Part shown: in pieces, positions 7,529 to 38,848 of the stretch | Layout: every line of letters begins with the position of its first letter | Position numbering within the stretch: the first letter of the stretch is position 1 | NCBI GenBank assembly: GCA_040954595.2 | Contig: CM082579.2 | Location: forward strand, 11,273,625 to 11,337,624 | Reading direction: 5' to 3' | Length of the DNA stretch: 64,000 bases | Origin: Balanoglossus misakiensis | Lineage: Eukaryota; Animalia; Hemichordata | Position numbers and translations under genes: made by a program | The notes under the pieces: model-generated | Told to the model about the DNA's origin: nothing | What the model saw: the letters and a program-made list of their open reading frames with translations, nothing else | Database searches by the model: none

Positions 7529-10500
7529 GTAAGTCTATTTTAGATCGTTTCATTCGCATTTGATTCGCATCCAACCAATGCTGTGATGTGCTAATATCGC
7601 CTTTTGAAACACTTCTGCCTTGAGCAATCTACAGTTCGAGAGCTGCTCGGTTCACACAGTTTGCGGCAATGAGAATACCCTGGGTCGTTATTTCTGAGCT
7701 ATTCATGAACAACACACAAATTGATGGTAATATTGGAAGACCATGATATGGTATGAAAATCAGAAGCGCAATTATTTTAACAGTCTCTCGTGTAGTTGGG
7801 CAAAATTACACAACATGTCAAATTTTGAAATGTGAAGTTTTTTTTTGTAAATTGCAAATGGAAACATCATAGCCAATTTTTTGCGAATTTCTACATCCTA
7901 ACCATATCTTTTCATTGACGATAACGTAAGGAAACACCGGAGGTTAGGCCTATGCTAACAGTACGGAGGGAAAACGGTTACTTCGTTAAAAGAAAACTTT
8001 CGACTTCATTAATCCGTCTACATTTTCTTATGTGGTTTTTTGGTTGTCAGGAGATATCTTGGCGGTACCTGAGTAGTTCTCACGATTCCGTTTTATTTTC
8101 GGTCATTTCTGAGCGGCTAGTATACCTTTGAGTGACTAAATTGCCGGTTCCTCAGATTTCATGCATAGACTACAAAGAATTGACCGGCCTTTTTGAACGT
8201 TGCGCCAATTCAACATACAAGTTGTCTTCTGCTGGTTGGTTGGTTAATTCCATCAAAATTGAAATCGTGATAAATGATACAGCCACCACATTGACTAATG
8301 ACACCATCGCTTCAATTTTCCGACTGATCATGCGAGAGAATTTGGAATTCCGATAAATTATCAGGAATGGATTATTCCAGCTCAGAGATTCTCTCCAAAA
8401 AGTTAGATAAATGCATCGGTCCAGAAGTAGTCCCGCTGTTAATGACTTGAGGGTAGAAGCGGAGAGGCAGCACTTGATATTATCGACAGTGCACTGCTTA
8501 ATTGAACATCTATACCGCGGCAAAATTGGTGTGCAGAAAAATAAATGTTCCCGGGCTACATGAGAAAGAATTTCATTCTTTTATTGTCCGACACACAGCT
8601 CTCCGTGAAAATAAAGTACTCATTTTTTGAATTTAATTTTTTTTGAGAATTTCGTGCTACGCGCAAACAGCGCCTGACATCTGCTGTTATATTCATAACT
8701 TTGCATAATATTAGCATAATAAAAAGAAGACGTTCCAACACTGACTATCGCCTAAACGGAGTGCATGTATGAAATTGTAGTACTTGCAATCATCAAATGG
8801 ACCACTTAACAGATAAAAGACGCACAACATGAGTCTTTTTGTTCATTGAAATAATGTCTCACATTTCCACTTCCCAAGTTGTTCAGGTGTTCGACGCTGC
8901 TTTTCTTCCAACTGTCAGCTCATAAGCGCATTAAGTTCACGATTTACTTTTTGCTCGTCCATTCCAAATATATCGGCTTGTTGTCAGATTTCCACGAGTA
9001 TCCTCGGAACACACTAAATCATCTTAGGTTGGGGCACTCCGTTCTGGCGATTAACATTGATCAATTATCTTATCCTGTTCAGCGGCATTTTTATACGACA
9101 ATGTCTTTTGAAACTAGCACATTTGGCGTAACGACAGACAGAACTTAGAAGCAACTTACTAAAGGATTTTCGCACAGTTGGCAGTGCACTTTACAACTAT
9201 ACCATCTTTCACATTTCTCCCGATAGTTTTCAAGCCCATCAACCGAGATGTTCAGCCTAATTTCCGTAATATTTAGCAACTGATACTAATTTTACGATTC
9301 TTTCTGTTGCTATTACAACGCTGACGATAACTTTATGTTTCAAATTTATTTGTGTAACCTAATTTTGTGGCAAGAAATCTTTGAATCGACATTTTAGTAG
9401 TAATACATGCAGTGTTTAAAAGCATTGGTCAGCGATATTTTCACCGTGAAGTTAATTTTCACTTATTTGCTGTAAACTCGCACCAATGGAAACATTGCAC
9501 AGACGTCAATAATAATACCTGATACACGTCAATAGTTACACGTATATCACATCTATCATAATTTACAAGTTCAGTTTTCATTAAATACATGTACCTCTTG
9601 TACTCTTCCCTCTAATCGAACTTTATTCCATCGGAACTATGTTACAACGAAACAAATTTGAAGAAGAAACGATGTGATAAGATGATAAGAATAGCAAACA
9701 TGTGACTGCAGAAATGCCTCCCAGAAATTTGAAGTTCTTTTGCTCTATGGCGTCTTAAGATTTCTTAATTTCATTGTGTGAGAGCGATTGAATAGCTTAC
9801 ATTTTAGCACATCGTAGTAACAGGGCTGTTTTCTGCTTTCTTTTGAGATAACACGTGGCATCTCAATATACTTCTCAACAAAGATTAACACTCACATGAA
9901 CTACCGCGGTAGTACTTTTGACACTTACCAGTATAACGTGGCAGAAAATGTTATGAATTCTGAGGTACGGTTGTGAAAAATTTACTCATGTAAAATGGTT
10001 TTACTGATGCATGGGCTTATCAGGAGTCAGTAAATGGAGAATTCTTTTAACTTTCTTTAAACAGAGATGTTTAATTTCGATACAGGAATGGCAATCTGAG
10101 ATTAGAGGCAGCTCAAAATTAAGTAGCCATTGTATGTTTAAAGTAAGTTTATTTGCGAGAAGTATCTAGAATGTATCCGTGATACTGTTTACAGATTTGA
10201 ATTGTCTCGTTTAAGATTATCATCACATAATTTGAATATTGAACAGAGAAGAAGCATGGCATTCCTCGTGAACAAAGCTATGTTCATTTCAATCTTGTGA
10301 TTCTGTAGAAGATGGGTTTCATTTTTTGTCTGTATGTCCACTTTACCATGACATCAATTAAATCACATTAGCTGTAATGACGTCAGTATCGAGTAACGTA
10401 TTAATGTAATCTTATCCGGCACGTTTGATGCCCGTCGCTCAAACATTTACTTGCTTTAGCTTAGCTCTAAAATTCTTAATAAAACAGGGACACATGAAAT

Positions 10501-13074
10501 TACAATTTAAAAGACTCCGAAGACGGTGCATTTCAAATATATCAAGCTTATGGTCATTCATCAAGAATTTGCGTATGCATCTGAACTAGATATAAACAGA
10601 TAAATATTAGTTTTCGCTTGTAATTCCTATAATTATAGTTTTAGGAAACTATGGCGACGCTACTTGACGGATTGTTTAAAAAGTCCGAGTGAAATTAAAT
10701 GCAGTGAAAGTAAATGTCAATAGATTTTCATAAGGTTTAATTTTCCTCACGTAGCAGCATATTCTCTTCAAACAATTCGAAATCTAGCAATAGATTGCCA
10801 AAAGTTAATGAGCTGCTTATCAATGGAGTTTAACTATTTTACCAGTAATCGTCGTTCTCGATCGGAGAGGTACAGCGTAAGATTTAGTAACTACGGTTTG
10901 ACAGAGAAAATATTCTACACCAGTTGCATTGTCTCGCATGTATACACAGTCATGTAATGCGGCTATTGAGAAGACAATGTCTCCCGCATCGACACCGGAG
11001 TATTATATTAACAACAGCAGGGCAACATATCCGTATCGTTCGTTGAACATGCAATCCTGTGTTATTAATCACGCGTCTGGTACCATTCTTCAAAGCATGT
11101 TTCAAATTCAGTAACAGATTGGTGGACTTTTATTAACTAATTTAATTTCATGAAGGCGGAACTACACAAATAGAGCAATAATATATCATTGTTGGGCATG
11201 TATAGAATTTGCCGGAGCCAAATTAGGTTCACCAGTGTTAATATCACTAGCTTGGCATGGCTACTTGTAATGCCAGGATATAAACACTATAGTGTGAGCG
11301 TTTTGTGACGAACATACACGCTACATATTACTTTCATCGGGAGAAAATCGATAGCTGTATTATACAATACATGCAGTGTGATGGAGAAGAAAAAGCAAGT
11401 GATAATGGCAACATTGTTTTCACTTTTAATAACGTTTCTGGGTACTTCTTAAGCGGGTGACATATTACGGAACTCGTTGGTAAGAACTATATGACAAAAA
11501 TCTCGCATGGATGAGCCGCAAGTGATATTTTATAAGTGCAATGCAAAATCTTTTCATTGATCGTTGTAACCACATCAGTGTCCCAATGGACTTCACAGGA
11601 GTTTCAATGCTAAAATGCGGTCCTCATCAGATATATACATTGCAGATTAGCCCAATAAATATTTTGTTGTGATAACTTAGTAGTTGTTCCTTAGATATAG
11701 GATGTAGTTTATAGACATTGTGTCACTTTGCTGCATTTTTGCATAACGAATGTGTATTTGTACATAGCCCATTTAGGATTGTGGTCGATCTCTCTTCTGG
11801 TCACTCTAGAAATGTTCCCAGCAGAAGAACAATCACAAATCACGAGAAAAGATAAAATCATCATATGTAAACGAAGTCTGATAACAGATCAATGTCTTTC
11901 TTTGTAATATATACAGTATACACGTTATTAAAATGGGAACACGTGATGGAGAATCGTGGGAGATATTTAACCTGGCAAGAATATTGCGTTAGTATTCTTG
12001 AATGACATTTTCATTCGGTCCAATTACCGCCTGAAGGTGATGCTGCATGTCACATGTCACGATTCGTTTTAAGCCATATTTCTCATCAAAAAGACAATGT
12101 AGCAACCTCCTCCACAAACCATACATTTTCATAATACTGAGTATCACACTTCATGTAGTTAGTTTACTTTAAAGCAGAAATAAAATTCACGTTAATAAAA
12201 TAAAACAAAAAAGCAAATTTGGTTTATTTTTATTACCACGACAAAAAATTAACTTCAAGAGTTCATTTGCCATCAACAAGTTAATTATCATTCGGAATGA
12301 GATATACGTACGTGAAAAAATGCGAATTTTTAGTTTTTCAGGACATTCTCTTATTCTAGGTTTTTAAATGATGAAAATCACATCAAGCTCACGTTAATTG
12401 TTTATCCCCGCTATGAGTACTTTGTCGACAAACGGAATAGTGAAAATTTGAGATAATTTGGCTAATGCTAAGCCAGATAATATTCATGTATATTTTTCGA
12501 AAAAAAAGTTAGGAATAAACCAAGCTGTATGCTAATTTACGTAACGAAGAACCGATAACGGTGTCATACGGACATGTTTACATTGTAAACATATGCTCTC
12601 TCCAGGTAGAATTGTATACGTCTCAATTATAAGATATGTACAAGTACAGAGACTATAGGCAGATTTCAACAAAGTTTGGTGCAGTAATTCCTGACATACA
12701 TACCCCAGTCAGTTGTCTTACTTCAGTCATACCTTTTAAAGTCTAGATGAGTATCTTCACCACGGTTTATGAAAATGAGTCCAGTAACTCTGATTTTTAC
12801 CACGAACTGTAGGTCTCTCTGAGGTCAATATATACAACTCGTTTGATCAAATACAGTGCATTAACTCTGGATATATATCGATCGATAATTGCAAATGTTC
12901 ATTAAATATGCAAATGAGACGTTAGTTTACATGAAACACACAGCTCCATTAAATTATTAGATCGGGTTTCAAATTAGGTTGAAGCCGATGGTTGTGGTTT
13001 CTGCAAATCTTCTGTCCATCCCCGTCGGGCCTCACAGTTGAATTCCCAATCAGTAAGGCTAAATCCACGCATAA

Positions 13075-13215
13075 AGTCAGTCACAGACAGTAATCTTCAA
13101 ATGATTGGACAAAAGGTTAGAGTCAGCGGGTAAGAGTTCTATTGTACGGGTAATCAGCCCTGCCTTGGCTATAGTTTTACATCCAATCATTTGTGGAAAT
13201 CTATTGTGATTGACT
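13075..13215. mobile_element. Degenerate palindromic MITE-like element in the precursor intron
   Basis: Left arm agtcagtcaca...caaatgattggacaaaaggttagagtcagcggg pairs imperfectly with the reverse complement of ccctgccttggctatagttttacatccaatcatttg...tgtgattgact. Confidence 0.5.
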
Positions 13216-16200
13216 AGAATGGCACACCAGTTATATCAAGTTTCGCCTTGGGGTTTATCTTTCTAGTTTGAAAAGCCAAGGTGCGAGACTAGACGGTGCC
13301 CAACATACAACTTTTGCAGAGCCTGAAAACGCCACTTGCATGTGTGCAGTAACAAGTGATTAGCAAGCACTTAAGGAAAGATGAGAATATATATATCACA
13401 GTAGCGCCTGGTGCCAGCGCACGACAAAACCGCTTCTATTCTCTATTGGTTGAAAGATAGAGTCACTGGATTCAAGCTTTTTTTTAATTTTCCTAGCCAT
13501 ATTTTAAACTGATGTGAAGTTTGTGTTTTTTTGCACAAAGCGAGCATATTTGTAACTGCAAATACCGACAAAGAGCTGGGAACATTTTGTCTCATACTCG
13601 TCTGTGACTCCTGGGAGACTAAGCATCTCCAACAAGTGTAAGAAATCTTATGCCAGGTCCTTAGCATTCTTCTTTCTCATATGACCACTAAACATCTTTA
13701 ATTTGCAGTACAAACGTAGATTTATTGACCGCATGACGCTTGTAGACCCTTCCTATTTACTACACACCGGACTATTGGATAGCATTACGCAGGCGTTAAT
13801 AAATTAAAGAATGTTTATTGTCCAATCAGCGTTCGTGTCATATTACTCGGGGAGTAAGTTGCGAGATCGATTTATGTCACACAGTCGATCCCACACTCCT
13901 CGCGGTCGGATTTGGGAGAACATATTCTTAATAAATCAAAACTGCTCCAAAACTGGAAGTTGTGTCGATCATGAACACACCGAAAAGCAGCGGCGTAAAA
14001 GCCAGGTGTGATAAAATGTTTTCCATATGATGCCAATTACCTGCAGAACAACTTATTGATATGTATTTCTACATACATGTGTGTGGTGGGGTAGTACATA
14101 CACTACAGTATCGTATGAGTTGATTGAAATTAAACTGTGAGATAAATGTAATGTCAATTATGACTTAATCGTTTCTAAAAATTGCAAACTCAATCACTTG
14201 AATAGACATATTATGAATCTATTACTAACTTGGCTTCAATACCATTATTCCAACAGTTCAATGCGTATCATGTGGGCGTAAGAGTTTTACAGTACAGTTT
14301 TAACTCCCAACTTTCTGCCACACACTCCATTCTATAACTAAGAGATAAGCTTAAATGAAAATAAAAATATATAATGACAGAACAGTTTAAAAAAATGAAA
14401 AGTAAAGGATAGGTTGAGCGGATTTCCAACCCTGCTGCCAACTTCACCTGTACCATATATGTCCGGTGTTCATCAGTAGACATACATATTGTATGACATG
14501 ACAGCGATTGATATCTCCATACAAATGCTGGATTCTCCTTGCATGTAGGCAAGATGCCTTGAAATACACATTCTAATTCTAATCCTTTGAAGGTTTTCAC
14601 GTAAATGGTCAGTCCACAATAGGTCACTCGAGATGTAAGTTCTTCTCCTTGCAAGCTCAGCTTACGTTAGGAATGCTTAGCGTGACGTAAGACTTGATAC
14701 AGTTACGACCTGATACATACATAGCCCAAACAAGGAACGAGCTGGGAAGAAGGTTGCATTTATTATATTACACATCAAGTATACTGATGGTGCAAATAGA
14801 GCGACCTGGTTAATCGACACACGAGGTGCTATATTTGTCATATACCATGGATGGATAGTTTCAAAGAGACCCTGTATGTGAATTGAAGATTTGCAATGAA
14901 TAAAATACGTATGCTGCTTCAACTTAGACCATAAGCACGCGTATTCCTCGCTGGGTCGGTAATCCTGAGCGATGATACTCTGTTTGAATGTCCAAATCCC
15001 GATTGGAGCAGATACCTAAATGATATCCAGTAATTGTACCAAAAGGAGAAGAACATTTGACTCAGCTATAGCGTATATACTAGAACATGATAACTTGTAT
15101 GTTTCAAGTCATTAAAAACAACAATTACTGAACAATTTCATCAACTTTGTAAAGTTGCGTATCGTTCTTATCATCATGTAAATTATTTCTCCCAACTCTG
15201 GTTCACAGCAACAGAGTGTTCATTTGTGATGAAAAGCGCGCCAACATTTACTTGCAGGGCATGAGAATGATCATTAATGAATATTCATACGTCGTACCAC
15301 GAGATTGTGACCACTTCGACCCCCTATATGCAGTCGCAGCTGCTCGTGCGTATAGTCCCGAATTGTTCAAAATCTCGTGGTAAGCTTATAAATGTCCCGG
15401 GGGTGTTTTATCGCTTGAATATAATATAGCATCGATATATACAATGTCTCCATTGGGCATTAGTTATATCGAGGCATTTTGGTTTGATGCCTGTAAACGT
15501 AGTCTGTCTTCGGTGCAGATACAATTCCGTATTGTTCAGCATTGAGGTTTCTCTTGACATCCACAACTGGCATACTGTTCCCAAGAAGCAATGTTTGCGT
15601 ATTCCTGGTGTGTTAATAAAAGGACCCAAACAGACCAAGATGCAATTATAATTGTTGTTACAGACTTAATATGTACTTGTGATTTGAGGGTGTGGATGTA
15701 CTTGTACCAGGAAAATCCATGATTCGCGAGTAGGGTGCCGTAATCAGAGAAGCACAGTAGGTGGAAGTTGTAACTTTACTTGAAAGTAGTATGCGCCTCG
15801 GGGACTGATATTCAGAAAATAACCTCCCAATTCTTTGCGATATCAATGCGTGTGGAGAGTCTTATTCTTGTGAAGATAGTACAGACAGCTTATTCACTTG
15901 AGAACGACACTATAGCGTATATAATACACTTTATGTAGGTTGCAACGGGATTATATAATTATTTATGTTATAGGAATATTTTCCGGGTACATTGTCAGTG
16001 CAGCTCTAATAACCGATTTCACTGCATCGCCAGAGGAAAAAAACTTGACTATTACAGTTCGATATTTATCAATAGTGAGTGAACAGAAACTCGGCTTCAC
16101 AACGCAATGATTATAGTACTGAACCTGGGGAGATTTCACTGGTTTAACAGTTGCCATCAAATGTTGATCATTAAACAAAAGAATGGACTTAATCATGTGC

Positions 16201-19200
16201 GGCAAAACAACTGGCTTAACGTATGCAGGCATGGATGGGAGTCGCGCAAGATTACTGGGATCACGTTATGTTCAAGCAATCCTTCTCCAATATGAGAGAG
16301 AATACAGCACTCTATTGACAAATCGAACGGCTCGTTATGAGTTGTGTCCGCACGAAGCAGTACAGTCAATACCGTCTCTGTGTATTCTCATTGTTTGGTT
16401 TTTGGTTAACTAAGTCATATTTCAGAAGTGCTCACACGAGCCAATGTAATGAACACTGGCGTATGATTAAAAGTAGCTTTGTGTGTGGCATGTATTGATT
16501 GCAAATAAGAACAGTGTTCGAACTATTCTGTGAAACCGAAAAAGATTTGATTTGTCTCGCCGCGCTCTATTATAAGTCACAAAAGAGTGTGATCGCGGAT
16601 GAGATAGCGCCACAAAAAGAAAAAAAGACAGACTGTCACAATTATCTGCTCTTCCGTATTTCACATCTTGAAAGCCGCTACAAATCATGAGGTATCTGTC
16701 TGATATGAAGGAGCCAAACGACAAACCAGGTGTTGCACGTGTTTTCAAATGAGAGGTCACGGAATTCTTTTAGTTTGCTTTCACAGAAGTAAATCGCCTT
16801 TCATTTTGTGGCCTGTCTATCATGTACATTGTACTTCTAACTTAATCTTTGGACGTTGTACGCATAACACGAATAATAATTTGTTCTACAGAATTTGTTT
16901 CACACAAAAATTATTTGACATTTACAAAATTGCCTTTTACATGAAGAAGAGACTGACTTCATTGGACAGCAAACTGATTTTTACCCGAAATCGTGCTATG
17001 GAAAACACGGTATATCATACAACAGCATGTGAGCATACGTTGGCATGTTGAGTATCACGTAAACTAGAATCCGTGTGTGTTATTGTAATTGGAGATGGAA
17101 TTAATGTAAAGGCCTTGCAATGTAAGATGAATAAAGGACAAGAAGAGAGACGTATGTTAGCAGGAACACAAAAAGCCATTTTACTGGACATCTGAAGAAG
17201 ATAGACATCGTCACATCAAATATAAATGAAGTGGAGTAATTGCACAATGACGGATAATTTGTACCGCCTTGATTCTCGTCAGTAACTCCGACCAGAATAT
17301 TAGAATTTATAGCTTAAAGAGTTCTTCGAGATATTTTATTGCAATCTACATTATGAGTGATAGACTTCAACCAACATTACACTGATTTTAAGAGCCCATC
17401 CGGGGCCAATATCCGTTTCTTTCACGTCATTACGTTCATCTCTTGTTAAGAATTCACATAAAAACATCGTATGTTAACAACGTTATAGAGAGAACAGAAA
17501 GATAACGCATGATATTATGTGACGTGTAATTGATAATTCGCTTGATTCTCTCCAACCCTGAAATGACAGATTATAGAGCTATACTGATAGCGGTTGTAGG
17601 TGAAGAAGTGCACTTTAAACATCCCAGAAATTCTAATTGCACATCATCCGCTGGGAAAGATTCGGCTAATTGAAGTAGTTAGTCTTCGCGTCAGGACATT
17701 TTGAGCAAAGTACGAGAGAAGCTATCGCCCAGCACATACAGCGGTCTATTGTGAAGCGATCATAGGTCAAATTAATGTCACGTGACATGCGTCATTTAAC
17801 TGCCGGGCAACAGTTCCCACAACTGTTGACCAGGTACTAATACGCATGCGCGCTCTTCCCTGAATGTGGAAAATGTAAATGTTCGTATGTTTGCCGTTGA
17901 ATAATAAACAAAGAGGGTAAATGGCCCGCTGTGCGAAAGTACATTGCTGTCTGCAAACTGGCCACTGTTTACGATAATCTGCCAGCAATGTACAAAACTG
18001 CTTAGTTATTCCGTAATACTCAGTGTTATACGTCTTTAACATTGATAGTGTATACATGTATTCACTCATGATGCTGGCATAGCGACAAACATCGATCAAT
18101 TATACAACATACACACATTTGAAGTATATTATTATAGTAGGGCCCGATACGCCAAACACATCATTTTAGGAATAAAAAATAATTGTTCACAATATATTTT
18201 TTATTTTGTAACGTAATGTACGCCTGTGCCCTGATTATATCTAAATATTTTTGTAACAAAAGGTGAGAATGATAATTAATGATTCTAATATCCTTATGTA
18301 TTTTGCGCCCATTTGATGGCATTATTTGTGTTGATTGGGTTTTAATGTAATCTAGTGTAGTAGCATTTGGCTTGTGTTGATTTTGACTGTGACTAAGATT
18401 GGGGAAATGTATATGCAGTTTTTGAAGTAGTGCATTGTTACTTACCCGAACGTGCATTACTCCATGCAACTTTAAGATGTAGCGCCCTTAGGTTGATAAA
18501 GAAGTCTTCACAAATCATGCTTTCAAGTTTCTGAGTTTTTCCAGGCGCTAAGCTTCAATGACCGTCTCCAAGTATTGGGTGAGAATAAGCTTAAATTAAC
18601 GCAAACATCATGGTTTCCACATAAAAACACATCGAAGACAACATGCAGCGCAAAGACATCAAATAATTATAGTTTTCACGTTCAGTTTACAATAATTCCA
18701 TGGCTAGTCCATTTCTATCAACTTCATTTACGTCGAGTGGGAAGTAATGTGAAGGCAAACTAATGGTACCCGTCTACAGGTATCGAAGAAGATGAAACAT
18801 TCTCCGGCACTGGTCACATTTATAAGCGCAGCACACACGCTCATACAGTTCGTTTGGCAAATTAGGCCTATTCCGATAAAAGGGTCAGCACTTACAGGGT
18901 TATTTCAAACAGAGTGAGCCATTTGCTGATATACAATGTTACAACATCACATTTTTTCGTCCGGGTGCATTATTATCTGAAGGTTTCGTCGTTTAAGGTT
19001 CCGCGTGTCTTTCAACCTGAGATGAAACCAACTAGTTATAGGTATCAGACATAACCATAGTCCTGTCACGAGCCTTGTGAAACGAGGCCAGGGTACTGTT
19101 TTGCAGAGACTTTGTACTGACTTCATATCTGTACACACGCAAGCATAAAGTACTTATTCACTAGATCTGAAGTTGGCTTACAGAACTGACGAAAGCCAAA

Positions 19201-19954
19201 CGCTGATATAGTGGCAATGGCAGGAAAATATATAACCCTTATAATGCTATGACGTGTACTGTAAGGAGAAATACTAGTGATGTGAAAATTCAACTCTATT
19301 GATTAAATGATATGAAGATAGAACTAGGAACTCAAACACCGAAATTATGATACCATATAACTCATTATAACATTCAAATGTGACGTTTAGTTTGATACTT
19401 TTATTGTTCTTCGCTACTTTCATTCAGTATCCACGTATACATACTTCATTTAGTATAAATGACATGGACCACAGCTAGTTATAGACTAGTTCCTATCAAC
19501 GTTTTTGTGATCGTCTCTCTTGAATTACACGTGCGTCAACATGTCACCATTTCCCTCCAATATGTACCTGTGCTACCTACACTTTTTTTTTAATTTATGG
19601 CGAAAGATACAAAACTTTAATAATAATTAAATGTCGTGAAAATACAACTCTAACAATGAAATGACGTGAACATCGAAGTTTAATGATGAAATGACGCAAA
19701 TATGACGCATTAGATTGTAACGTTAAACTCGACAAAATAAATTGGAATGTCTAACATTTGAAATCGATATCGTATTAGTACAGTGGAGCAGTGACCTTTC
19801 TGGTAAACACAAAAACAGCTGGTCAGCCGACCAAAACAAAATTGAAAAACAATGTGACTCATTAAAAGACTTTTAAAAAGTGACTAAGTATGCAGAAGTT
19901 AGATTAATATTTGGTAAACTACTTTGAAGTTTGAGCGACGTCGAGAAGTATGCA

Positions 19955-20136
19955 TTAACGGTCACCTACGCAAATTTAGCTAAAGTTACCATGGCAATTT
20001 GAGATCTAACCAATCACAGATTTTCAGTGGGTGGCACACACAGAAAAAAGAGCGCCGTCATATGTTCTTTAGAACACTCAAATACGCCATTTTTGATATG
20101 GGCGTACGTAAATTGGAGGTGAGTGTATGCCCATAA
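19955..20136 (+). mobile_element. TTAA-type MITE, family A copy 1 (diverged)
   Basis: Aligns along its length with the reverse complement of 39211-39406 (shared ggtcacc...gcaaat...ccaatcac...gggtg.cacac...gaacac...gtaaatt.gaggtga). Confidence 0.7.
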
Positions 20137-23100
20137 GTTTTGGTTTTGAACCTCTGAAGAACCGTTTTGACTTAATCGGAATGTACTCTAGAATCCAGTC
20201 GGGCGTTCACGTGAGGCCTTGCATGGAATGGGATTTCAGCTGAATTCTGGGCCGCATTCGAAACTAAGTTGAACAGTAACTCGAAACACAGGGACATTTT
20301 GTGTGGAGGGGCGCTTATACCAGTACATTCACTGACTGTTCAACGAACGGTCATGCAGCAATTTTGTAAAGGATACCAAAGACATTACATGTATACAATG
20401 TACTTGTGGAAGTTGTGCGCGTGCGCGCTGACTACGTTGAGAATGTGAATGAACGCACAATACTAATTGAAAATTTTAGTTATAATACCTCATAATACTT
20501 TATGAAGTGAATTTCATAAAATGTTGGAATCTTTAATGCAGAGTGCGTTTATTCTTTATCTCTGTTGCGCATGAGCAGTGCTACATAATTATATGGCTTG
20601 ATGACCCCCCATTAGTTTGCAACTGAAGTCACCAGAAAAAATACTAAGAATTACAGCTGCTGAGATTTGTAACAACTTGACATTTTCGATGTTTGTACAT
20701 GGACATGTACATGTACTGAGCTTATTCAATGATATAGCTGTGTATTTTAACTGCATTTATTGGTGCCAACTTATTCTTAACAAAATTTTAATCTAACGGC
20801 ATTCCATATCTATGTTTTATATTTTTGAATTGTTAAATAACCGGAAGTCCATACAGGTGTATAGTTGGCTTGTTCCAATAGAGATGTTTACCAACAATCG
20901 CTCTATTATTCTTTTCCATTGTTTCTTGATGACACCTCGGGTTCTGGTATATCGATGTCAACCGTACAGTCTGGTGTATTTATTTCTGGCATTCCGTAGT
21001 ATTTTTTACAATTTCAAAATGAATAGGCACCACATAAAACAATTGCGCTTAAAAAAGACCTGTTTTAATAATAAAAAGCTACACAACATAACTGGATAAT
21101 ATGGTGATTTTATGTTGATGTCTTCATATTTGTGAGGTAAAGGCAGTTTAATATATCCGACCGCAAATATAAAGTATTTCTTATACGAATAGCTTAAGGC
21201 TGCGATCATTCAAGTTGTGTTTTATTTGAGCTTTTCTTTTCAAATGATGTGACATATGTATATACATTTGTATACATATTGCTCATTTGACACTTTTCAT
21301 AAGACGTTTAGTCACGCATTGTTACAGCAAATAAGGTCACATTCAATTAATTTTAATATCGGTTAGCTACAGTATCCATCACAGATGAAAAGTCTAATTT
21401 AGATACCCAGACACAGGTTATACCTTTGATATGCAATACTAACACAAAAAAAAGAATCGTTATGGGTAGAACTTCGAATTTAAGAAGCATAACTGTGATG
21501 TCTGCTACAAATTGAATCACTCATTATTCGCGTAATGATGCAATAAATTCCTGCTGCCATGAGTCGTTTTACGAAAATGTATTAATTATGAAGGTTAAAA
21601 GAGATTAACTCGTTAAAATCCCCAAGGATACGTATTTGATGTCGGTAGTGAATGACTGATGCTACACCTATGCCAATGACTTCAACTGGACAGAAGATTG
21701 AGCTAAGTTGATGTTAAATTTTGTTTTACAATGTAATTTTGTTAATAAAGTTATCATTCATAAAGCTTTAGTAATCTCGTTACAAGTCGAATCATTCGAC
21801 ACTATTGTTGTGGGATAAAGTCATAATACTATTAAAACGAAAAGTTAAACCCTTAAAAGCTTTTATTTGAGCTATCCATTTTCCTTACTTTCAATTTGCT
21901 GGCGCGCTAATGTGCGAAAACTTAATGCATCATTAGGTGATCGCCTTAAAAGGCGTGATTGAGAAGCAGTCGACCATTTAATACTGCCCGTACTATGCAT
22001 AGCGCCAGTGTAGCGATTCAGCGTTCTGCGCTCATCGATACGTCACCAGGGAATTGTTTGATGTATTGCCAGCCACCAACACCTCATAATCACCTACTAC
22101 GCCAGACTTGTTGCAACGTCAAATCAGCTTGATCGCTTCATACGTCTACCTGTACCACGAATATGATATATACCTCCATGCCTCTTGCATAGGCTCGGTG
22201 TTAAACTTTATGGCTAATTGAAAGTGCGTTGAAGTCAGGTTGAAAGCCGCGCGGTGTATTAAAGCTTACGTCTGCGCGTTAAATCCGGATTAGCAATCCA
22301 ATTGCGCATTGCTGTGTTTCCAGGACAACCGTAAAACGAGGGCATTTTCGGGCGTTTTATGTCATGTCACATGACAGGCGGGCTCCAGCTGAAATTTTGG
22401 TCTGTACTCATCATGAGCGTTGTTTCATTATTTCAAATACGTTCGGCAACCTGTGAAATTCAATGTTCACACAAATACTGCCAGTAACAAATGATTTGTC
22501 ACTGACAGGAACCACAGCATACCGGTATATCACAGCTGTTTCCTCGTTTTCCTTTATATCCATAAGACTTAGTAATCTCACGACATTTATAAAGTACAGA
22601 AGTATTTAGTATAAGCCTTAAATGTTAAACATCCATCACAATTATTCATTATATTTGACGATGCTTTGAAGTGTGCGTTGTGCAGTATATCATAGATTGT
22701 AGTCGCCTTAAAATATTCCCATGGACTTCACACACTCACAGAATTATACCAATGTACGTAACCCCAGATTTTCTAATTTTCGGTAGAACCGAAATTTTAT
22801 TATAAGTGAGTGATTAATGGTCAAACTTTATAGTTAAAAAGTATTCATGTCGACAGTTTTCACAATGAATTCTTTCGGTTTTATAAAACGATATCCAAGA
22901 CGAGGGCTACCGTTTCCAACAAGTTAATAACCGCAGGGTGGATTTATTAAAGCTGAAACTGTATTTTCTGGTATCCTGCATACAAATCTATCCAAAATTA
23001 CAAGTATCTGAAATAATAAGTATACATCAAGCACATCACCCGAACCTGATGCAATGGCAGAATGTCCACACTCGCTTCACAAAGCACACTAGCATTTTGA

Positions 23101-26100
23101 GACAAGAATTGCCAATGCAGATGAATAGACAATACAGGGAAGTTTGGAGACTTCAATGAGTATAAGCTATGATTGAATATAAGCTCACTACCGTTGTCTT
23201 TCAGAATAAAACGCTCACCATAGCGTTCCAGCCACATTATATATGACAAAACCGGTTACACGCTCAGTTGAATATTTTTAAAATGGTATTAAAAGTCGTT
23301 TCATGATATTCAGTTTACTAAGGAAGCGTTCAGTGTTGTTACGGTGGAGGGGTGAACGTCCTCAATTTTGAAGCCGCTGAGAGAGACACTTAATTTTCAG
23401 CAATGTCCACTCCTGAAGTCACTCCTGAAAGTAGTCTACAGATCCATATCATGTGTTTTGTTATAGTAATATGTTTCTCCATGTGTCAGTTGGTACATGC
23501 CATTGACACAGTATATAACTGGGTTGTCGCAGTGCTACTGGGAGTCTTTCATATGCTCTAGGACTCTGCCATATGTTGCCAAACACACTGACAAAATGAC
23601 ACAAAGAACAATAATGTCAAAATTTACCCGTGAGGGGGACATCGTAATTTTGTCATCTTCAAAGGCTAGGAGACCATCCAATTCGATGTGTGTGTGGGGG
23701 GGGGGAGGGGCTCATTCGTTTTCGGCGTGACAATATGATTTTGCTATTCTATTCACGAGATGGGTTAGCGGGGACTATGTCATCGACTTTGACCTGTTTT
23801 GATATTATCTGACCTGTAAGGCAAATCCTGACATCTAATGTTTTGTGACAGTTTACACGGATTACACGGCACTGACGAGAAAATAAAATGACGAGTGAAA
23901 CAGACATTGTGGCTTATCGTAGCATCACTGCAACCCATAAAATAGCATTAGTATTTCATTAGTAAAACGGTAATTCATCACATACATTTCACCATTATCT
24001 TATCAAGCAGATCCTCCCCTGCAGATCCTACATGTATCGATGAGACAAGCCTACGTACACCTCGCATTACTTCACCCTTTATCGGGAAGTAAAGAGCCAC
24101 TGGCGATTACTTGGTCGTACGTTTGAAATCAAGATTTTACGGTTATGTTGACTTTAATTTCAAAGGTTATTTATCCAGTTTATTTCATTCAAGTTTTGCT
24201 CCGGTTGGCAGTGATGTGATTATCATTGAGATGCGCGTAAATGATGCTACACCTGAAAGAAGATTGTTATGACATTTATTATTACGGCGATGAGCTATCT
24301 GCAGGTCTCCAAATTAAATCTGGGGTCAGCGGTCATCTGTTAAACGATTTATTGACGGTTTCATATCAGAAGCCTCGGAGACGACGTACTATTTGAAGTA
24401 TCAGAATTGACATTACTTACCCTCCCACGTTCCTTTGTAGTTTTGCTGTATATCAAGGCCAGGTTTGAACACTACATGTATGTAGTCGGTGCACCAGTCG
24501 AATGGTAGCTTTAATACCTGTGTGTGTAAAACCTTGTGTATAACATAACTATGGTGATCTAACACCCCGAAGAAATATAAACTCAACATTTACAATGTAA
24601 ATGCAAACAAATAATATTAATTGTCTCCGTTTTATCTTCGGTTGTTAAATTAAATAATTGTCGCGACTTTATTTTTTGTCATATTGTATCACATCATATG
24701 TTCATGAAACTAAGCGGTGTACGATGAATCGTGATTATTAAGGTATATGTCGTCGATATGTGGAATATTAATTTGGCGCTTTCATTGAATAAAGGTGATG
24801 CTGGAACAGTTGCGTGGGGTATAACATTTCTGACGCTCGTGCGAATATGTCCAATTCATGAAATATTAAGCGGTTTCATTTATCTTAGAGAATGATAGAT
24901 ATGGCAATACAATGTCATGAATGTGATATGTTGTTCACGCCTGCAAGTTCATTGGGAAAATCAGGTACAGCTGTACTTTTTGTGATCGAACAATTCTTGT
25001 ATATCGGCATGCACATTAGAAGCTACCAACAAACACACATGCCAAATTTACTATTTAATTTACACACGACTCTATTAAACCGATTAGTCCGTAGCAACGT
25101 GAGGAGATATCCTCTCCTTGGCGGATTAGCTTGACCTAAGATGACACTATTCCCTTTATAGTATAAGTAGTTATAATTGCACAGATGCAGCCTATATGCT
25201 GAGTAATAGGCATAATCTGACACTTCTTTAAATTGAAATTAAGATGATAGGAGCACTCCACTCAAGCGAGGCATCAATGCCGTTCTGTGGAGACCCTTGA
25301 ATATTGTCGATAACTGTGCAACACGTAAAATCGCCCGCCAACTAAACCTGATATACGAGAACATTGAGAATACGAATGTTCCACGTACGTATATAGACCG
25401 TCTATCTTATGAAACCCCTCGGAGTTCTTCAACAAACGCTCTGTTTTTCTGCCAGTCAGCTTCAACTTCAATGAATGGGGTGTTTGTGGAAAACGGTTTA
25501 AAGAGTCTCAGAAAAATCCAGGCATGTGACGTCAAATTGCCCAACACTGTGTCAGAGTCTCCGAACGTGTTTCGTGCAAACTTTCAGTTGCCGTAGAGTA
25601 CAGCCGCCCCCACTATAGAATTATAACACACGCACATGGCAGTGACGCTGACTCTGTAACTTGTCACTCGCGCTTATGACGAATTAATTAGCCTGTGGCA
25701 GATCGCCTGGTAGTTTTCCAGTTAAAAATGACATGTTAAAATATAATCTAAGCATCGACACGTTATCCGGCTCTTTCATTGGACAGAGACTGTTAATGTT
25801 TTAGAACATTGGACGTAGAAGCCGAGAGAAATATTGTCAATTTCTGTATAACTAATTATTATAATATTATACCATTACATGAAGAAAATTTAACACGTAA
25901 AAATCGATTCTTACTAAGCTCAGGAACTTCGTGTATATATTAGTGTACATTGGAAGTTGTGTTGGGCTGAACGACATATCGTTAAATTATAGGCATATCT
26001 ACCGATTTACAACACGGTATTTCAAACATTGACATTGTATATAAGAAAAACACACTTCTTGTTTCAACTAAAAGGGAAAACGTGTACTCCACGGTTACTT

Positions 26101-29100
26101 TGTTTTCTTTGGAGATAAATGTAATCAACTGAAAGCGCCAAACTCCAGAAATGTGTCAATTCTATGAATCTGTTTATCGCTGTTTATGCATTGCGAAATT
26201 TCATGAAAAGGTGGATGCCAAATCATCCAGTCCCCATGCACTCACGGCACTGCCATTACACACCTGTATATTTACAGATCATATGCATGTTGGAAGTTAA
26301 TCAATTGAATTTCATTAAATGTAATTTTTCCATTGTTCCAAGACATCTCCCAGCAAGTTTGATTTCTCATTTAAAAAAAACACCCACACAAATCCATTCA
26401 TTTCTTGACTCTTTCTTGTCGGTATTAAAGGGTCTTATCTGTAACTTCTGTCTAGTTTCTTCGGCATTTTTGTTCTGTATATCACCTACATCTTTGTTCT
26501 CTCCTCTATCTTAACCCAACATGCCAGGTTTTCTGAATGCCATGTGTATGTTTACCCATCATTGTTATTGTTAACAAATGAATTCTAATCGGGACATGAT
26601 TACACTTTTTGAGCAATATTAATTTAATGTCGGTATAGCTACAAACAAACATATCATTAACCTCTGACGTATGTGTTTGTTTTAATTGTGAATAAGTTGG
26701 ATAATAAACGGGTGATGCACTCTTTCATTCAGCCTCCCGCAACGCATATGCACATAAGAGAATAAATCTTCACAAATTCAAAATGGTGTCGTCCCTTGGC
26801 TTGATTTAAGTATTTCATCATTCAAAATACACTAAATGGGACGGGCCATGGCGCTTTAAAATTGGTGATGAATAGAAGCACTATACCGAAACTAAACACA
26901 CAGTCTGTCTTTTATGAAAACCAAACTGATTATCCCATTCTTTCAGATTTAGAATACGCTGTCGTCATTCAACAAAGTCCAGCCCACTCCGAAACCATTG
27001 TGTCGGCATTTAAATTTCCGCTTTGTAGACAAATTGGACGTTGTCTGTTCACTCAGAACTCGTCGTGACTTTGATAGGGCATAATTATTCTGGACATGAT
27101 CGTGTGCATTACTGTCTCAAGACGTTCACATCAAAACTCGAGACGGGGTAATAGCTTGATACGTTTGTGATCTGTTTTAATTACAGACTTCTTAAGTCTG
27201 TCAAATAATTTCATACCAAACATCTATATATCAATGGAAACCCATTTCCATAAAATCCCTTTCTATAAAATGAAAGATTTTGGACCCTATTATAAATACA
27301 TATACTGTTGAGAAATCCGTGGATCATTTTTTACATATCATCGAATTCTAAAAAGAAAATTGTAAAAAGCTAGAAAACCTGAGTATGGTTTTCGAGACTA
27401 TAAGTTTCGTCTGGTTGTTTGAAAATGTGATGGACTTCCGATTACCAGTTGTTGAGTCAAATAAGTAAAACATTTAAGACATGTCAAAACGATATACTGA
27501 GAAAATGTTTATTAAAGACAGGAAGTTGCTATATATTCTTTGTTAACATATTTTGTTCAAAGATTGATAACAGATGTCCAACGTGCATTATTGACGATTG
27601 TCCACTCCTAACGGCCAAGAAAAAGGAACAGAGTGGGGGCGGGGGGGGGGGGTTTCGATGGAAATATTCAAATATTGCGAACCTACATGTTACCTTGAAA
27701 CGGGAGTGACGCACAAACAGGAATAGGAAGATCTGATTTTTTTTTGGGGGGGGGGGGCGGATGCTACAGAATTTACATCGTTCTGACTAACGGAGAGTGA
27801 GTTTCATTAAAATCCCTGAAGTACTGAAGCAGTAAAATTGAAAATAATCCACCCTCCTATCTGTCTCGTGAATTTCTCAGCACCGTGGAACGTCTGATGC
27901 ACAACGGCCCGATTTCAATTTCAAGCCTGTTGGTTTTCTCATTTGCAACTCATTATGTCGATGTCACAGAAGTTCTAAATGAGGGGAAATCTCCAAGTTG
28001 CTGTTAACCTGCACAAAAAAATCAAATATTAATATTAATATCTACTTAATGATAAACCGAACAAGCGACAGAAACCGATATGGCTAAAACATCTAAAATA
28101 TGCATGAACAAATTGTGTTAACCAGCGTCAATTATCAGGTATGTCCAACAGTTCTAATCTATGTGTGTTTGGAATTGAAATGGCTTGGTTTATTTGGAGT
28201 GCAATATGACAAAACATTTCCTTGTTTAATCCGAATTTCTAGGTTCACATTGATAACGTATGTACAACATAAATATACGTGTAAGTTTTTCAACCCATAG
28301 ATTCCGAAGTTAAAGGCTTTTATTTATATATTATATGCGTCAACACTTTGCTAGGCCATCCTGAATGAACATTGTCAAATTATCTGTCATCGATTCTGAA
28401 ATATCTTTAAAGTCGATATCAAAGTGATTCTGGATGTCATTGTAGCTGGAAATTAGTGTATCCACTCTTGCATACTCTGTATCAGAATGTAACTGTGTCT
28501 GGCTAGCACAACTCATATTTTTTACACCGTGGCACTGAGTGACTTCAGGCCAGGGGCGATTTTCTGTTTCAAAACTCTTACCGCGATTTCCGCGTCCTAA
28601 TTTCATTGTTTAGTCCGGTAACTACTAAATAGTTGAGTCAATGTTTACTTTCAGTCAAATCTTTCCACTGCCATGTTTAAGATCATAGCACACACTGAGT
28701 CGTGCGATGTCTCGGATTTGGTGGATAATGTGTGATGGACGGCTACTATGTTCATTGAAATCAGTTCTGACATTGTTTCATCGAAAACGTACAGCTCTTT
28801 ATCTTGAGGCAAATTTCTGAACGCTTGTATCGTTTTTGTAAACAGCTCTGCTTCACTCGCTTGCTGGTGATTTGCCATGACAACTGCCAATTGTACGTGA
28901 TTATAAACCTTTGAAATACACGTTTTCCTTCAGTCTATATGAACCCTAAATTGAATTCAGGTTTCCGTCGAACGTGTTTGTCATCTTTCCGGGGATATTG
29001 CTTCATGCTAGGTTTTGACTTGGTTTCCAGCATTGCTTTCACTTTGCTGTGGCGTTTTATAGCAGAAAGATTTTGTTTCAAAATAACGGAAATTATCAAA

Positions 29101-32100
29101 ACTGAAAAAAGCTGCGCGGATTTGTTGCTGGGCAGATTTGAACTTTTAGATGAAATGAGGGAGGCATTTCCACATTTTATTTGCCATGAAATTACTTCTT
29201 AACCAAATCGTATTATCTTAAGATGTATATGGAAATCAGCGATTCACTTTTGCCGCCGTTTTCACTAAAATTGGAACACATCTGATTGTGAATTGACTTG
29301 AGCCGATTATTCTTTATGTCACTATTTCTCAACAAAGAAGACCTGCCAATCATTCTCAGCAGTTTTGTAAAAAAATGAACTACACACACATATGCTATTA
29401 AGAGTCGATGATGAGGTGGTATAATGGAAACACAGTGCTATACGTAGGTGACACAGTATCAACTATCTCTTTATCCGGTGATGGATTTTATCCTTTGGGA
29501 GTGGCTAGGTGTGCATTGCCACTGGACTCTTCAACACCCACTCTCTCCCACGTTGAACACAGTAAAGGCTAAAAGTTGGATACACCGTGTTCATCGTGTT
29601 CATGCTCCATCTACTTTCGACACACATCTACTCATATCAATATCTGAATCTTCCAGTGTTTGTTTGATATCACTCGCGCATTAATGGAACTTGAAAGTCA
29701 CATATTTATTTTCTCGCGGAAAATAAACAATGAATGCGATCAATTTAACTTGACATTGTACAAGAGTTAAAGAGTGATATCAGAAAGAATATCGGAGGAG
29801 ACTTTTTTTGCGCAATCATAATGAATGTATTTATTTCACGAACCTTACATTGTAAGGTAAACTGGACTCACATAAAAAAATTGGACATTGTGAAAGATGT
29901 ACATGACAAAGAGTGCTTATATCCCATCAACCGACAAACACCCATTAACATTTACTTCTCCCATTAAATCTGACACGAGTAATTACTTGCCTAACCTTTA
30001 GTCTGCATTCACAGCTTGCCATGTTTAAGTTCGCCCATCAGTCAGTAAATGCTAGAAGTAGCAGAGCTACGGTTGGAATATTCAGATGTATTACATTATC
30101 AGCTTTATGCGTCGAATTGGCGAATTTAGTATACGTTCTACAGTATGACCCAAAGCAATGATAGTTGCAACAATTTGCGCGTTTAATGGACTCCTTCTGA
30201 TGGGGTGTTTCATTAGAGTTCCATTACTCGAAATATCACATGTTTAAGCTAAATTAGTCTGATAACAAATCATATTTTTAAAGATAACAGTGAGTGACAC
30301 AGTGACTAGTTTGATGTTTCTGGTTCTAAGATGTACTTCACAAGTCTTTGTGGCTTATAGACTTAAGCCGGTAAAATGCGCACCTTTTTGATCAGCTTTC
30401 ATTTAAATCAAATGGATGAAGGGCCAGTATATAATTAAATATAGGAGAGACCGGAGACAATTGAGGAAGGGTTTGGCCGGGGATCGCCATTTCATTTCAT
30501 GCATGGATCGTGTGTGTGTGTGTGTGTGGGGGGGGGGGGGGGTCATTTGATTTTGTACAAGGATGGATAATATATTTACTCACTATTAAAATAATGCACT
30601 GTGATTTGAATACATAATGTATTGTCAGTACTATTATAGTTAACTTTTGGGCTGCAAATATAAACTTCTATATCAACAATAATACTCTGACTGACTGACT
30701 GACTATACATACAGGCTGTGTCGATAAGATTAATTATTGGTATTTCTGTAGCGAACATGGAGAGAATGCCATACGCCGTATTCTAATGCAAACTGTCCCT
30801 GTTAATTCTGTCAAGGCCCTATACATAAATTAATATTCTGATGGAAAGGGTTTTATGCCTCATAACCCTTGTGCAAACGAAAACATAGATTTAAAACTGC
30901 CTCTTTAAGGAGAAAATTAATTTCACATTTTAATCGATGGTTTATTTCCTGCCTGTGCCCCATTTATTTAATGTACTATTCGAAACAAAACATTTCTTTG
31001 TTCACGTGTACCCCGGTCGCTGTTTTCATTCAACACTTCTTCTCTTGAAAAAGAGATAGTTAAATTGGACGTTCGTTCAACGCGTGGCTGCAAAGAACAT
31101 CCATGTTGGACGGATGCTCGCCGAGAACACGTCGCCCATCAAACTAATACATAGTACACACAACCGACTCATGGTACTCGAACGAGTGACTCACTTGCTT
31201 TCAGATATGTTAAAAATTGTGAAGCATATTTTGATGTAGTTTGCAGCAAAGCTTACGATAGAGAACTACGATCCCATGGGACTGTTGATTGAAATGTACA
31301 TTCTACCATATGCTGATACTTTACGTATGTTCAGGTTATGTCCAGTCGCTGCGGTCAATGTTATATGTTCGCTAACTGCTTGTGGGGGAAGTATGGATTC
31401 TGGAAGACAGCAGACAAAAAACAAAGATTTGGAACTTTTTCCGCATTTGCAGCGGGACGCGATACTTCGAAATGGCCAGACTCCATTGACATGTCTCTGT
31501 TGATGACAGCCAATCAGATCTCTCCGTTGCAGACTATCCGTCAACAGTAAAGGAAGTCATTATTTGCTCAACGTTTTTTTGGGGGGATAATCAAGTAAAG
31601 ACCTGACAGCATGCCATAGCTTGACGCTGCTTCGATGAGATGTAATCGTAGACGGTAACTGAAAAAATGCACTCTCCATCTAATCTCATCCTCAAAGAAG
31701 ACGTTCTCTTTTTGCCTCTGACAAGCGGGCTCCATCAGCTTTCAGATAAATTGTAAAGTTCGTCCCGTCGTCACAATTTGATGGAGCCAAACCCACACAA
31801 CCAATTGTCAAACAAGAGACATTGGGCTTCTTAAAGGATATTGTGTTGTCAGCGACTTCCAATATTTCACAGACGGTGACACAAATGCGTTTGCCGCTAC
31901 TATGAGTGTATTCATTATCAAAATTAAGCAATTCTGGAGATGGACCCAAACTGTGCAATTTAGAGATGGACTCAAATCGACACTGCCATTAGGGTCTAAC
32001 GCTGCAATCTGCTTTTCACGTGTGGGATCATAATTAAGATAAAGTTCGTTCAGACAATTTTTTAGTCTTCATTCGAAAGATAAAAAAATATGGAGCTGTC

Positions 32101-32322
32101 TATTACAACAGTTGAACAAGAGGAATAAAATTTGATGGAGGTTATATGCTCCAAATGTCATCTGTACTTTCAAATCGAGTCTGACACGTCAACCCGTATG
32201 CTTCTAGGTCAAACTATAATGGTGTTTGAATTGCAATTACGTGAACAATGCAACTCATTTTTATCAAAGTTCCAAACATACTTTATATTAATCACTCTTT
32301 CTTGTGTTTTTTATCATTGTAG

Positions 32323-33705
32323 ATTGACAATGTTATTGATTGCTCGGAGCTTGTCCACCAAGATACCAATTCCGAGAAAATTGTACATAAATGCCAAAAC
32401 GAGGCACTATCCTCCAAATCAACAAGCCGATCTCAAGATGGACATCAACTACAAGATGAGGATGACGACTCATTTGACAAGAAGGCAGCAAAGACGTTTT
32501 TCGGGGTTCCTCTGAAAAATGGACGAGCAAATAACATTGATGAACGCGCTGCCAAGTCTTTCTTCGGATTTCCTTCTAGACCAGACCGCTCCCAAAGTGA
32601 CAGTGAACATAAAGTTCCGTCAAGCAAACGGAAATCGTACTTCGGTATGCCCTCCATGAATGGTCGCTCTGTCGGTGACGCGGAGAATGGTGCGGCAGAT
32701 CAAATTGACGCCGACGAGGAAAAAAGAAAAGCTTTCTTCGGCATACCGTGGCGCGATCAACGTGGCGACGAGGCGTTGTTAGACCAAGTCCCCTCTAGAG
32801 ATTTCTATGGATTGCCAAACAGTATAACGAGCAGTGACATCGCCCAACGTTCATCCAAAAGTTTCTTCGGATTCCCCTCTGCTATTGGCAGATCGGTCGA
32901 TTCAGATAAACGCGCCAGCAAGTCATTCTTTGGCATCCCTTCAAAGTACTCTGGTGGTGATCACGAATGGGTCGTGGGAAAGAGAAAGTCCTTCTTTGGA
33001 TTACCGAATCAGTCTGGTCGTAGCGCTCCCGATGTTCCTGTGCAAGTCAGTGAAAGAAAAAGTTTCTTTGGAATGCCGTCTGCTACCGGACGATCTGTAG
33101 AAGAAGCACGTGGCGAAGTGGCAGCCTATCACCCTAATGAGATGGACGAACGAGCTTCTAAAAGCTTTTTCGGTATGCCCATGGCAGGTCGTTCTGTAGG
33201 AGAAGCCGACACATATGACGGTTACCAATCTGAACTGGTGAAGAGACTTGGCGGACACAGAAAGGCGTTTGTCGGAATGCCAATGGCAGTCGGTAAGAGA
33301 ATCCACGGGGAAGACATCGACGATACACATGCACGTGACCGTCGTTCACCAGAAACCACTGAGTTGGAAGACAACCTCATCAATGGTAATGAGATAGACG
33401 ACGAAAACCAAGTTAGTAAGAAAGCAAACCTGGCCCATTTATACGCTAGAGGCAAGCTGTACGCCGGTATGCCAGTAGCCACTGTCAACCGAAGTGATCG
33501 ATACAGACCACAGTCGAAGAGGTCTGCTGCCGTCGTTCAAGCTTTGCCAACTATAGACAAGAGTGGCATGGTAGAAAAACGCTCGCAAAGACGAAGAAAA
33601 CTGTTCTCTGGGATGCCGACAGCTTTCAGACGTGCTCGCCCAAACTATAACAGTGCAGCTATCACCGGTAAACTTTTCATGGGAATGCCTGTACCAGAAT
33701 TTTAA
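32323..33705 (+). CDS. Coding exon 2 of a neuropeptide/prohormone-like precursor with 14 K-x-[F/Y]-x-G-x-P peptide copies
   Basis: Pyrimidine-rich acceptor ...ttatcattgtag|ATT at 32322/32323. The frame is open for 460 codons to TAA (108 codons upstream of the track's ATG at 32647). Repeated units such as KK-AAKTFFGVPLKN-GR, KR-KSYFGMPSMN-GR, KR-KSFFGLPNQS-GR and ER-ASKSFFGMPMA-GR are separated by acidic spacers, which is classic prohormone organisation. Confidence 0.92.
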   Translation: MDNVIDCSELVHQDTNSEKIVHKCQNEALSSKSTSRSQDGHQLQDEDDDSFDKKAAKTFFGVPLKNGRANNIDERAAKSFFGFPSRPDRSQSDSEHKVPSSKRKSYFGMPSMNGRSVGDAENGAADQIDADEEKRKAFFGIPWRDQRGDEALLDQVPSRDFYGLPNSITSSDIAQRSSKSFFGFPSAIGRSVDSDKRASKSFFGIPSKYSGGDHEWVVGKRKSFFGLPNQSGRSAPDVPVQVSERKSFFGMPSATGRSVEEARGEVAAYHPNEMDERASKSFFGMPMAGRSVGEADTYDGYQSELVKRLGGHRKAFVGMPMAVGKRIHGEDIDDTHARDRRSPETTELEDNLINGNEIDDENQVSKKANLAHLYARGKLYAGMPVATVNRSDRYRPQSKRSAAVVQALPTIDKSGMVEKRSQRRRKLFSGMPTAFRRARPNYNSAAITGKLFMGMPVPEF

Positions 33706-33920: not shown

Positions 33921-33926
33921 AATAAA
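33921..33926 (+). terminator. Candidate polyadenylation signal of the peptide precursor gene
   Basis: AATAAA ~215 nt after the stop codon in an AT-rich 3' UTR. Another AATAAA lies near 34524. Confidence 0.4.
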
Positions 33927-38776: not shown

Positions 38777-38801
38777 ACAGGCAGGCAGGCAGGCAGGCAG
38801 T

Positions 38802-38848
<47 letters not shown>
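38777..38848 (+). repeat. (CAGG)n(CAGA)n microsatellite
   Basis: Direct reading: caggcaggcagg...cagacagacagac. Likely the tail of a non-autonomous element. Confidence 0.85.

Follow-up and report, generated by a model that had tools for sequence, protein, structure and literature searches.

A multi-copy precursor of F-x-G-x-P peptides conserved in acorn worms, likely encoding neuropeptides of an apparently unnamed family

Introduction

What is encoded by an open reading frame of Balanoglossus misakiensis in which a short aromatic-glycine-proline core recurs 14 times, and are its products neuropeptides? We considered this question within a window of 64,000 nucleotides, which is the whole stretch of DNA analyzed and to which all positions refer. 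Acorn worms are a main outgroup for understanding the origin of the chordate nervous system, and their list of neuropeptides is known to be incomplete. The hemichordate neuropeptidome is indeed described as incompletely annotated and without peptidomics in the part of a 2026 preprint covered here (10.64898/2026.04.13.718258).

Results

A single exon carries 14 cores in two classes

On the + strand, 32323-33705 forms one open exon of 460 codons followed by TAA, and its translation contains 14 cores of the form [FY]-x-G-[MLIFV]-P. All the repeat units listed in the original prediction were recovered from this translation, while no more than 2 cores (mean 0.04) appeared in any of 20,000 shuffles of the precursor's residues and no stop-to-stop frame of the window outside the exon showed 2 or more. 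The formula K-x-[FY]-x-G-x-P, proposed for every unit, holds for 13 of the 14 copies at the lysine two places before the aromatic residue, copy 5 having an arginine there. The features of the exon are the following.

32323..33705, + strand: second coding exon with all 14 cores; open frame, with homologues at 57% and 35% identity
32341..32394, + strand: Cys-x16-Cys pair in the pro-region, a putative disulfide loop; same 16-residue spacing in Saccoglossus kowalevskii
32491..33300, + strand: class A block, copies 1-11, K-S-F-F-G-[MLIFV]-P followed by a tail; Gly-Lys/Arg closes 8 of the 11, with acidic spacers between copies
32497, 32560, 32638, 32734, 32803, 32863, 32926, 32992, 33064, 33166 and 33268, + strand: starts of the class A aromatic residues
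33334..33345, + strand: RDRR, the sole R-x-[KR]-R (furin-type) site and a predicted cleavage point, dividing class A from class B
33346..33705, + strand: class B block, copies 12-14, K-L-[YF]-x-G-M-P, cores not followed by an amide Gly; the protein ends with the last copy
33460, 33604 and 33676, + strand: class B aromatic residues

R-x-[KR]-R is the furin consensus. Identity among the 14 cores is 0.75 at first, 0.79 at second and 0.38 at third codon positions, with all four Gly codons and all four Pro codons in use, and none of the 12 rows returned by Tandem Repeats Finder for the window overlaps the repeat exon. Considering that third positions are scrambled while first and second positions are kept, and that there is no tandem DNA repeat, selection on the repeat is, judging from codon usage, at the level of the peptide.

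The signal peptide lies on a predicted, distant first exon

A signal peptide had been placed within 32323-33705; it is found instead on a separate, predicted exon at 7442-7528. Immediately upstream, the frame of the repeat exon runs into a stop codon, TAG, which is a splice acceptor preceded by a pyrimidine tract, so that 32323-33705 is an exon with neither start codon nor signal peptide. A scan of ATG-started hydrophobic frames over bases 1-32300 gave 11 candidates, among which only the one at 7442 both resembles the N-terminus of the S. kowalevskii homologue (14/20 identical, E 5e-08 as a single comparison) and has a phase-0 donor. Hydropathy reaches 2.88 at the N-terminus (11-residue span) and at most 1.41 elsewhere in the precursor; the signal-peptide call combines this hydropathy with homology. 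The gene model would be completed by the following elements.

7442..7528, + strand: predicted first coding exon of 29 codons, running from the ATG through a hydrophobic signal peptide into the pro-region, closed by a phase-0 donor (GAG/GTAAGT)
7529..32322, + strand: predicted intron of 24,794 nt, phase 0, GT...AG; phases match and a pyrimidine tract precedes the acceptor
33921..33926, + strand: AATAAA, a candidate polyadenylation signal 216 nt past the stop, by consensus match

Once joined, the exons are open for 489 codons (489 aa), with cysteines at positions 14, 36 and 53 compared to 14, 38 and 55 in S. kowalevskii. As the phases match, the join is open and the Cys positions are nearly equal, two coding exons suffice, and we infer a splice between 7528 and 32323 across 24.8 kb. 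Two other start codons were rejected, the ATG at 32135 being in a different frame and the one at 32647 lacking a signal peptide. Long frames from the intron (7529-32322) gave no Pfam match at E 0.001. Inside the intron we also noticed two isolated Y-G-[ML]-P on the - strand (20856-21001), in different short frames and devoid of basic flanks, which we take as chance occurrences.

Homologues in two other acorn worms show what is conserved

A word-seeded search in which 7,996 candidates were scored revealed two relatives, both annotated as "uncharacterized": XP_070552492 of Ptychodera flava (413 aa) and XP_002734233, or LOC100369028, of S. kowalevskii (518 aa). The window protein is nearer to the first (57% identity) than to the second (35%). 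Exhaustive phmmer against 1.84 billion representatives returned the same 2 relatives and no others, and a three-sequence profile found no further member among 7,996 similar-length and 1,639 shorter proteins. At detectable similarity, and in these searched sets, which give no figure for their coverage of pterobranchs, echinoderms or amphioxus, the family appears restricted to acorn worms. The P. flava record begins inside the first repeat, without signal peptide and Cys pair; it looks truncated, and the distant first exon is probably absent from its gene model. Such a missed exon could hide the gene from neuropeptide screens based on signal peptides.

The three proteins contain 42 cores (14 in the window, 13 in P. 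flava and 15 in S. kowalevskii), and 40 of them have a lysine at -2 relative to the aromatic residue. A Gly-Lys/Arg signal follows the core in 8/14, 5/13 and 10/15 copies, respectively. Core identity is high (74/91 with P. flava, 73/98 with S. kowalevskii), a value partly built in, as the cores serve as anchors for the aligner and the S. kowalevskii copies are not one-to-one orthologues. Over the 7 window copies with tails of 2-3 residues, tail identity falls to 8/20 and 1/20, while the amide Gly is kept in 6/7 copies against either species. Nevertheless, the tail between Pro and Gly measures 3 residues in 21 of the 23 copies with a Gly signal (6/8 in the window), and both exceptions, of 2 and 12 residues, are window copies. 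The low identity combined with the fixed length means that the sequence of the tail drifts while its length holds; the amidated tail, predicted to be hypervariable, is therefore so in sequence and not in length. Class A spacers are identical at 89/182 (P. flava) and 56/206 (S. kowalevskii) positions and are less well kept than the non-core part of the class B block (57/83 and 38/78). RDRR is the single R-x-[KR]-R of each protein and occupies the same aligned place in the three species, and the last 12 residues are identical between the window protein and S. kowalevskii.

Two details of the repeat were also observed. Copy 5 (32797-32817, + strand) has neither Lys, amide signal nor clear basic flanks; its P. 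flava counterpart is degenerate alike, yet keeps Y-G-x-P-N-S, and selection may still be acting on this copy. Around 33424-33456 (+ strand), a dibasic site is followed in 3/3 species by x-N-L-A-[HR]-L-[YF]-x-R and then Gly-Lys; cleavage at this single Lys, should it occur, might free one more R-amide peptide, unrelated to the others.

The precursor is predicted to be processed into short peptides

A signal peptide combined with basic-flanked repeats and Gly-basic signals is the mark of convertase cleavage, carboxypeptidase trimming and PAM amidation. The protein shows the whole set, with a predicted signal peptide as its sole hydrophobic segment, repeats flanked by basic residues (present upstream of nearly all cores), acidic spacers and Gly amide donors.

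The same chain could in principle be a secreted matrix or mucus protein that is left uncut, with its aromatic-glycine repeats acting together. The absence of an amide signal in 6 of the 14 window copies would suit such a protein, and so would the poorly ordered ESM Atlas model of the S. kowalevskii homologue (pTM 0.33, pLDDT 0.45), as proteins of this kind would give one too; structure matches of this poor model (TM by query <0.5) were set aside. An uncut chain does not explain why Gly-Arg/Lys is found exactly 3 residues past the Pro in nearly all signal-bearing copies, across residues that drift freely, nor why basic residues stand ahead of nearly all cores, and we regard it as very improbable. 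That the gene encodes a conserved precursor of processed peptides, be they neuropeptides of an unnamed family, tachykinins or peptides of non-neural tissues, is, by contrast, very probable.

Among these, we consider the first likely: the gene would belong to an acorn-worm family that has no name and encode a neuropeptide precursor, cut by convertases and PAM into a cocktail of short peptides for a GPCR. The exons would be spliced over the 24.8-kb intron and the 489-residue product would enter the secretory pathway, where the RDRR cut would give two halves. Class A would yield peptides of ~9-10 residues, (K)-S-F-F-G-[ML]-P-x-x-x-amide, and class B a few longer, conserved and mostly non-amidated peptides. 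The Lys at -2 would either open the peptide or close a cleavage site of the RK or R-x-x-K type. Any tail sequence would be tolerated by the receptor, which would recognize the F-x-G-[ML]-P core at a constant spacing from the amide, and this would explain the pattern of conservation.

The same enzymes could act outside the nervous system, for example in an epidermal gland, gut or gonad, to give peptides for defence, paracrine signalling or communication between gametes. The regulated secretory pathway, rather than neurons as such, is what a signal peptide, basic sites and Gly signals point to. On the other side, core, spacing and C-terminus are strongly kept between distant acorn worms, as would be expected of a receptor ligand more than of a peptide used in defence, and all the Atlas matches shown (see below) are neuropeptide precursors; overall, we find a non-neural origin improbable. 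PC2 and PAM are expressed in neurons or neural territories of S. kowalevskii, according to the part of PMC10508912 considered.

Profile and language-model searches

Pfam gave only Sororin_middle for the precursor (E 0.19, below the cut-off) and no match for five sub-regions. A sequence search of the PDB returned one acidic chance match (E 1.4), and none of 565 pattern matches in JGI metagenomes was confirmed. ESM Atlas features were compared for S. kowalevskii XP_002734233. Among 30 matches, the 8 shown are all neuropeptide precursors; this result, together with the anatomy of the protein and its conservation in two acorn worms, gives good support to the prediction that the gene is a neuropeptide precursor. 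Tachykinin precursors of arthropods take the first two ranks, with scores of 0.89 (174/256 features) and 0.87 (168), followed by an unnamed neuropeptide-like cluster, allatostatin (rank 5), TRH, PBAN and FLP, while vertebrate protachykinin is found at rank 29 of 30. According to the Atlas guide, a score <0.9 is a lead only, at least 170 shared features favour the same family, and a family represented by 2 of the 10 best matches is "probably wrong". The signals on a tachykinin family, obtained with the S. kowalevskii protein alone, are therefore in conflict, as 174 shared features stand against 2/10 best matches and scores that are all <0.9.

Are these peptides the tachykinins of acorn worms?

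We asked whether the gene could encode the tachykinins of acorn worms, with F-x-G-[ML]-[RM]-amide replaced during evolution by F-x-G-[ML]-P-x-x-x-amide and the tachykinin receptors of these animals changing alongside. Known tachykinins, as tabulated in PMC6880623, end in FxGxR-amide in protostomes and FxGLM-amide in chordates, for example SFVGMRa (Drosophila DTK-4), FFGMRa (Culex CTK-III) and FFGLMa (human substance P). In a by-eye comparison with that table, all 42 cores match F-x-G-[hydrophobic] in register, with a variable position 2 in both sets; tachykinin precursors are likewise multi-copy, share the F-x-G-[ML] core and often have S or A before the Phe. Moreover, this 2019 review, in the part covered, reports tachykinin receptors in S. 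kowalevskii and other acorn worms with no ligand found at that date, perhaps through sequence divergence, and a receptor tree in PMC11521371 shows a S. kowalevskii receptor labelled "TK" beside P. flava sequences. The two best Atlas matches point in the same direction, as does a "tac+" neuron cluster of Saccoglossus, named from earlier published precursor lists (10.64898/2026.04.13.718258); the "tac" gene of this preprint may be LOC100369028, although it may also be another gene.

On the contrary, the part of the peptide that defines tachykinins is different here. The fifth residue of the core is always Pro and is followed by a tail, with the amide 3 residues later or absent, and an amide signal comes after the fifth core residue in 0/42 cores of the three species. 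FxGxR-amide, FxGLM-amide or any FxGxx-Gly-basic ending was found in none of the three proteins. Conservation is N-terminal here and C-terminal in tachykinins, there is no HMM match and no Pfam tachykinin match even at E 10, and no tachykinin precursor came up among the 1,639 shorter and 7,996 similar-length candidates compared with the three-species profile. In the Atlas, only 2 of the 10 best family matches agree, vertebrate protachykinin being 29th of 30. F-x-G-hydrophobic is also short and common among neuropeptides, and starfish already have another tachykinin candidate, ending in GLF/GIF-amide (PMC6880623, in the part covered). As the defining tachykinin C-terminus is absent in 42/42 copies, we do not file the gene as a tachykinin, and a tachykinin origin appears to us unlikely, if worth keeping in view. 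If it were true, the terminal Arg/Met would have become Pro, the amide would have moved three residues out, and an ancient bilaterian receptor family would read the core of its ligand N-terminally. The original prediction recognized no family in this motif; no profile names one, in agreement with it, but the match to the F-x-G-[ML] core of tachykinins had been overlooked. Phrase searches on hemichordate tachykinin found no paper in the body of literature covered.

Comparison with other peptide systems

FGL-amide and R[FYW]-amide are the C-termini of allatostatin-A, kisspeptin and RFamide peptides. Some of the copies read F-G-L, and allatostatin precursors hold Atlas rank 5, but unlike allatostatin-A or kisspeptin, this position of the core is more often Met than Leu, and no FGL-amide, RF-amide or R[FYW]-amide ending was found in the three proteins. 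Acorn worms possess kisspeptin-type receptors without identified ligands, as stated in the part of PMC9400282 covered. Named S. kowalevskii precursors (VIamide, luqin, WFMRFamide, NNFamide, achatin, TRH, CCK and others; PMC10508912, in part) belong to the same animal group and share the predicted PC2/PAM processing, while none of their tested motifs is present in the three proteins.

A closer parallel in architecture is offered by the AN peptides of echinoderms, which also derive from an ambulacrarian multi-copy precursor, keep an N-terminal motif and are amidated in some copies (PMC4772807, in the part covered). The idea that an N-terminally conserved core is nearly without precedent does not stand in front of this example. 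Their motif is an N-terminal Ala-Asn, unlike the F-x-G-x-P described here; a KK-AN start occurs once in the window protein and in neither homologue, so a repeated N-terminal Ala-Asn was not found, and no AN precursor was among the similarity-search matches. AN peptides have no known receptor, and their likeness to tachykinins, pointed out at one time, was attributed to convergence (both from the same part of PMC4772807).

Other look-alikes, namely apelin, ghrelin, dermorphin and FG-nucleoporins, were set aside, the resemblance being short or ill-fitting.

Novelty and meaning of the peptide family

Full-text literature searches with both accessions, the gene number and the motifs, in a body of text taking in a minority of the subscription journals, returned no relevant paper; "FGMP" did occur in two neuropeptide-titled papers, in both cases within unrelated proteins, and the other matches were judged by their titles to be unrelated. 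Within the searched literature the family is apparently unnamed, and the description of it as "undescribed" agrees with the lack of a naming paper; its novelty is not secure, as the surveys of Jekely (2013) and of Mirabeau and Joly (2013), together with the 2026 "tac" table (Supplemental Table 7 of the preprint), lie outside this scope. These two surveys would be the likeliest to list S. kowalevskii XP_002734233. Motif and accession are absent from the covered portions of the text and 3 supplements of PMC10508912, of the supplement of PMC6188537 and of 12 of the 13 supplements of PMC11521371, and term searches over the available portions of PMC5818035, PMC9400282, PMC5627052, PMC7314547 and PMC7041311 gave no mention.

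What is new is the motif, the variable tail of fixed length and the two-block layout, while the kind of system is familiar. The gene supplies a conserved and apparently unnamed set of ligands, ready for synthesis and screening, and makes testable the case of the acorn-worm tachykinin-type receptors for which no tachykinin was known in the covered part of the 2019 review (PMC6880623). Should a tachykinin receptor respond to these peptides, it would follow that the amide can shift position even in a family recognized by its C-terminus; with no such response, they would represent a new system particular to this lineage, whose receptor is an orphan.

Surroundings of the gene in the window

The neighborhood was scanned with Pfam over 146 of the 163 stop-to-stop frames of at least 70 residues, leaving aside the repeat exon, all frames that overlap either exon and a small number of overlapping frames on the opposite strand. 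At E 0.001, 3/146 frames gave a match, listed here with a further signal-peptide frame.

51076, + strand: signal peptide and Cys-rich frame
55976-56263, + strand: VWD fragment (E 5e-4, below the Pfam cut-off)
57841-58242, + strand: EGF repeats (E 9e-7, below the Pfam cut-off)
63594-63809, + strand: fragment of a hAT transposase dimerisation domain (E 4e-4, just below the cut-off)

The first three features suggest a separate, downstream, secreted multi-exon VWD/EGF gene on the + strand, spanning 51076-58242 with an extent that is not fixed, and this is the one gene neighbor visible in the window. Simple microsatellites were also observed at 38765-38848 (GACA), 40321-40446 (GAT), 54470-54521 (CAT) and 56270-56410 (ATGT).
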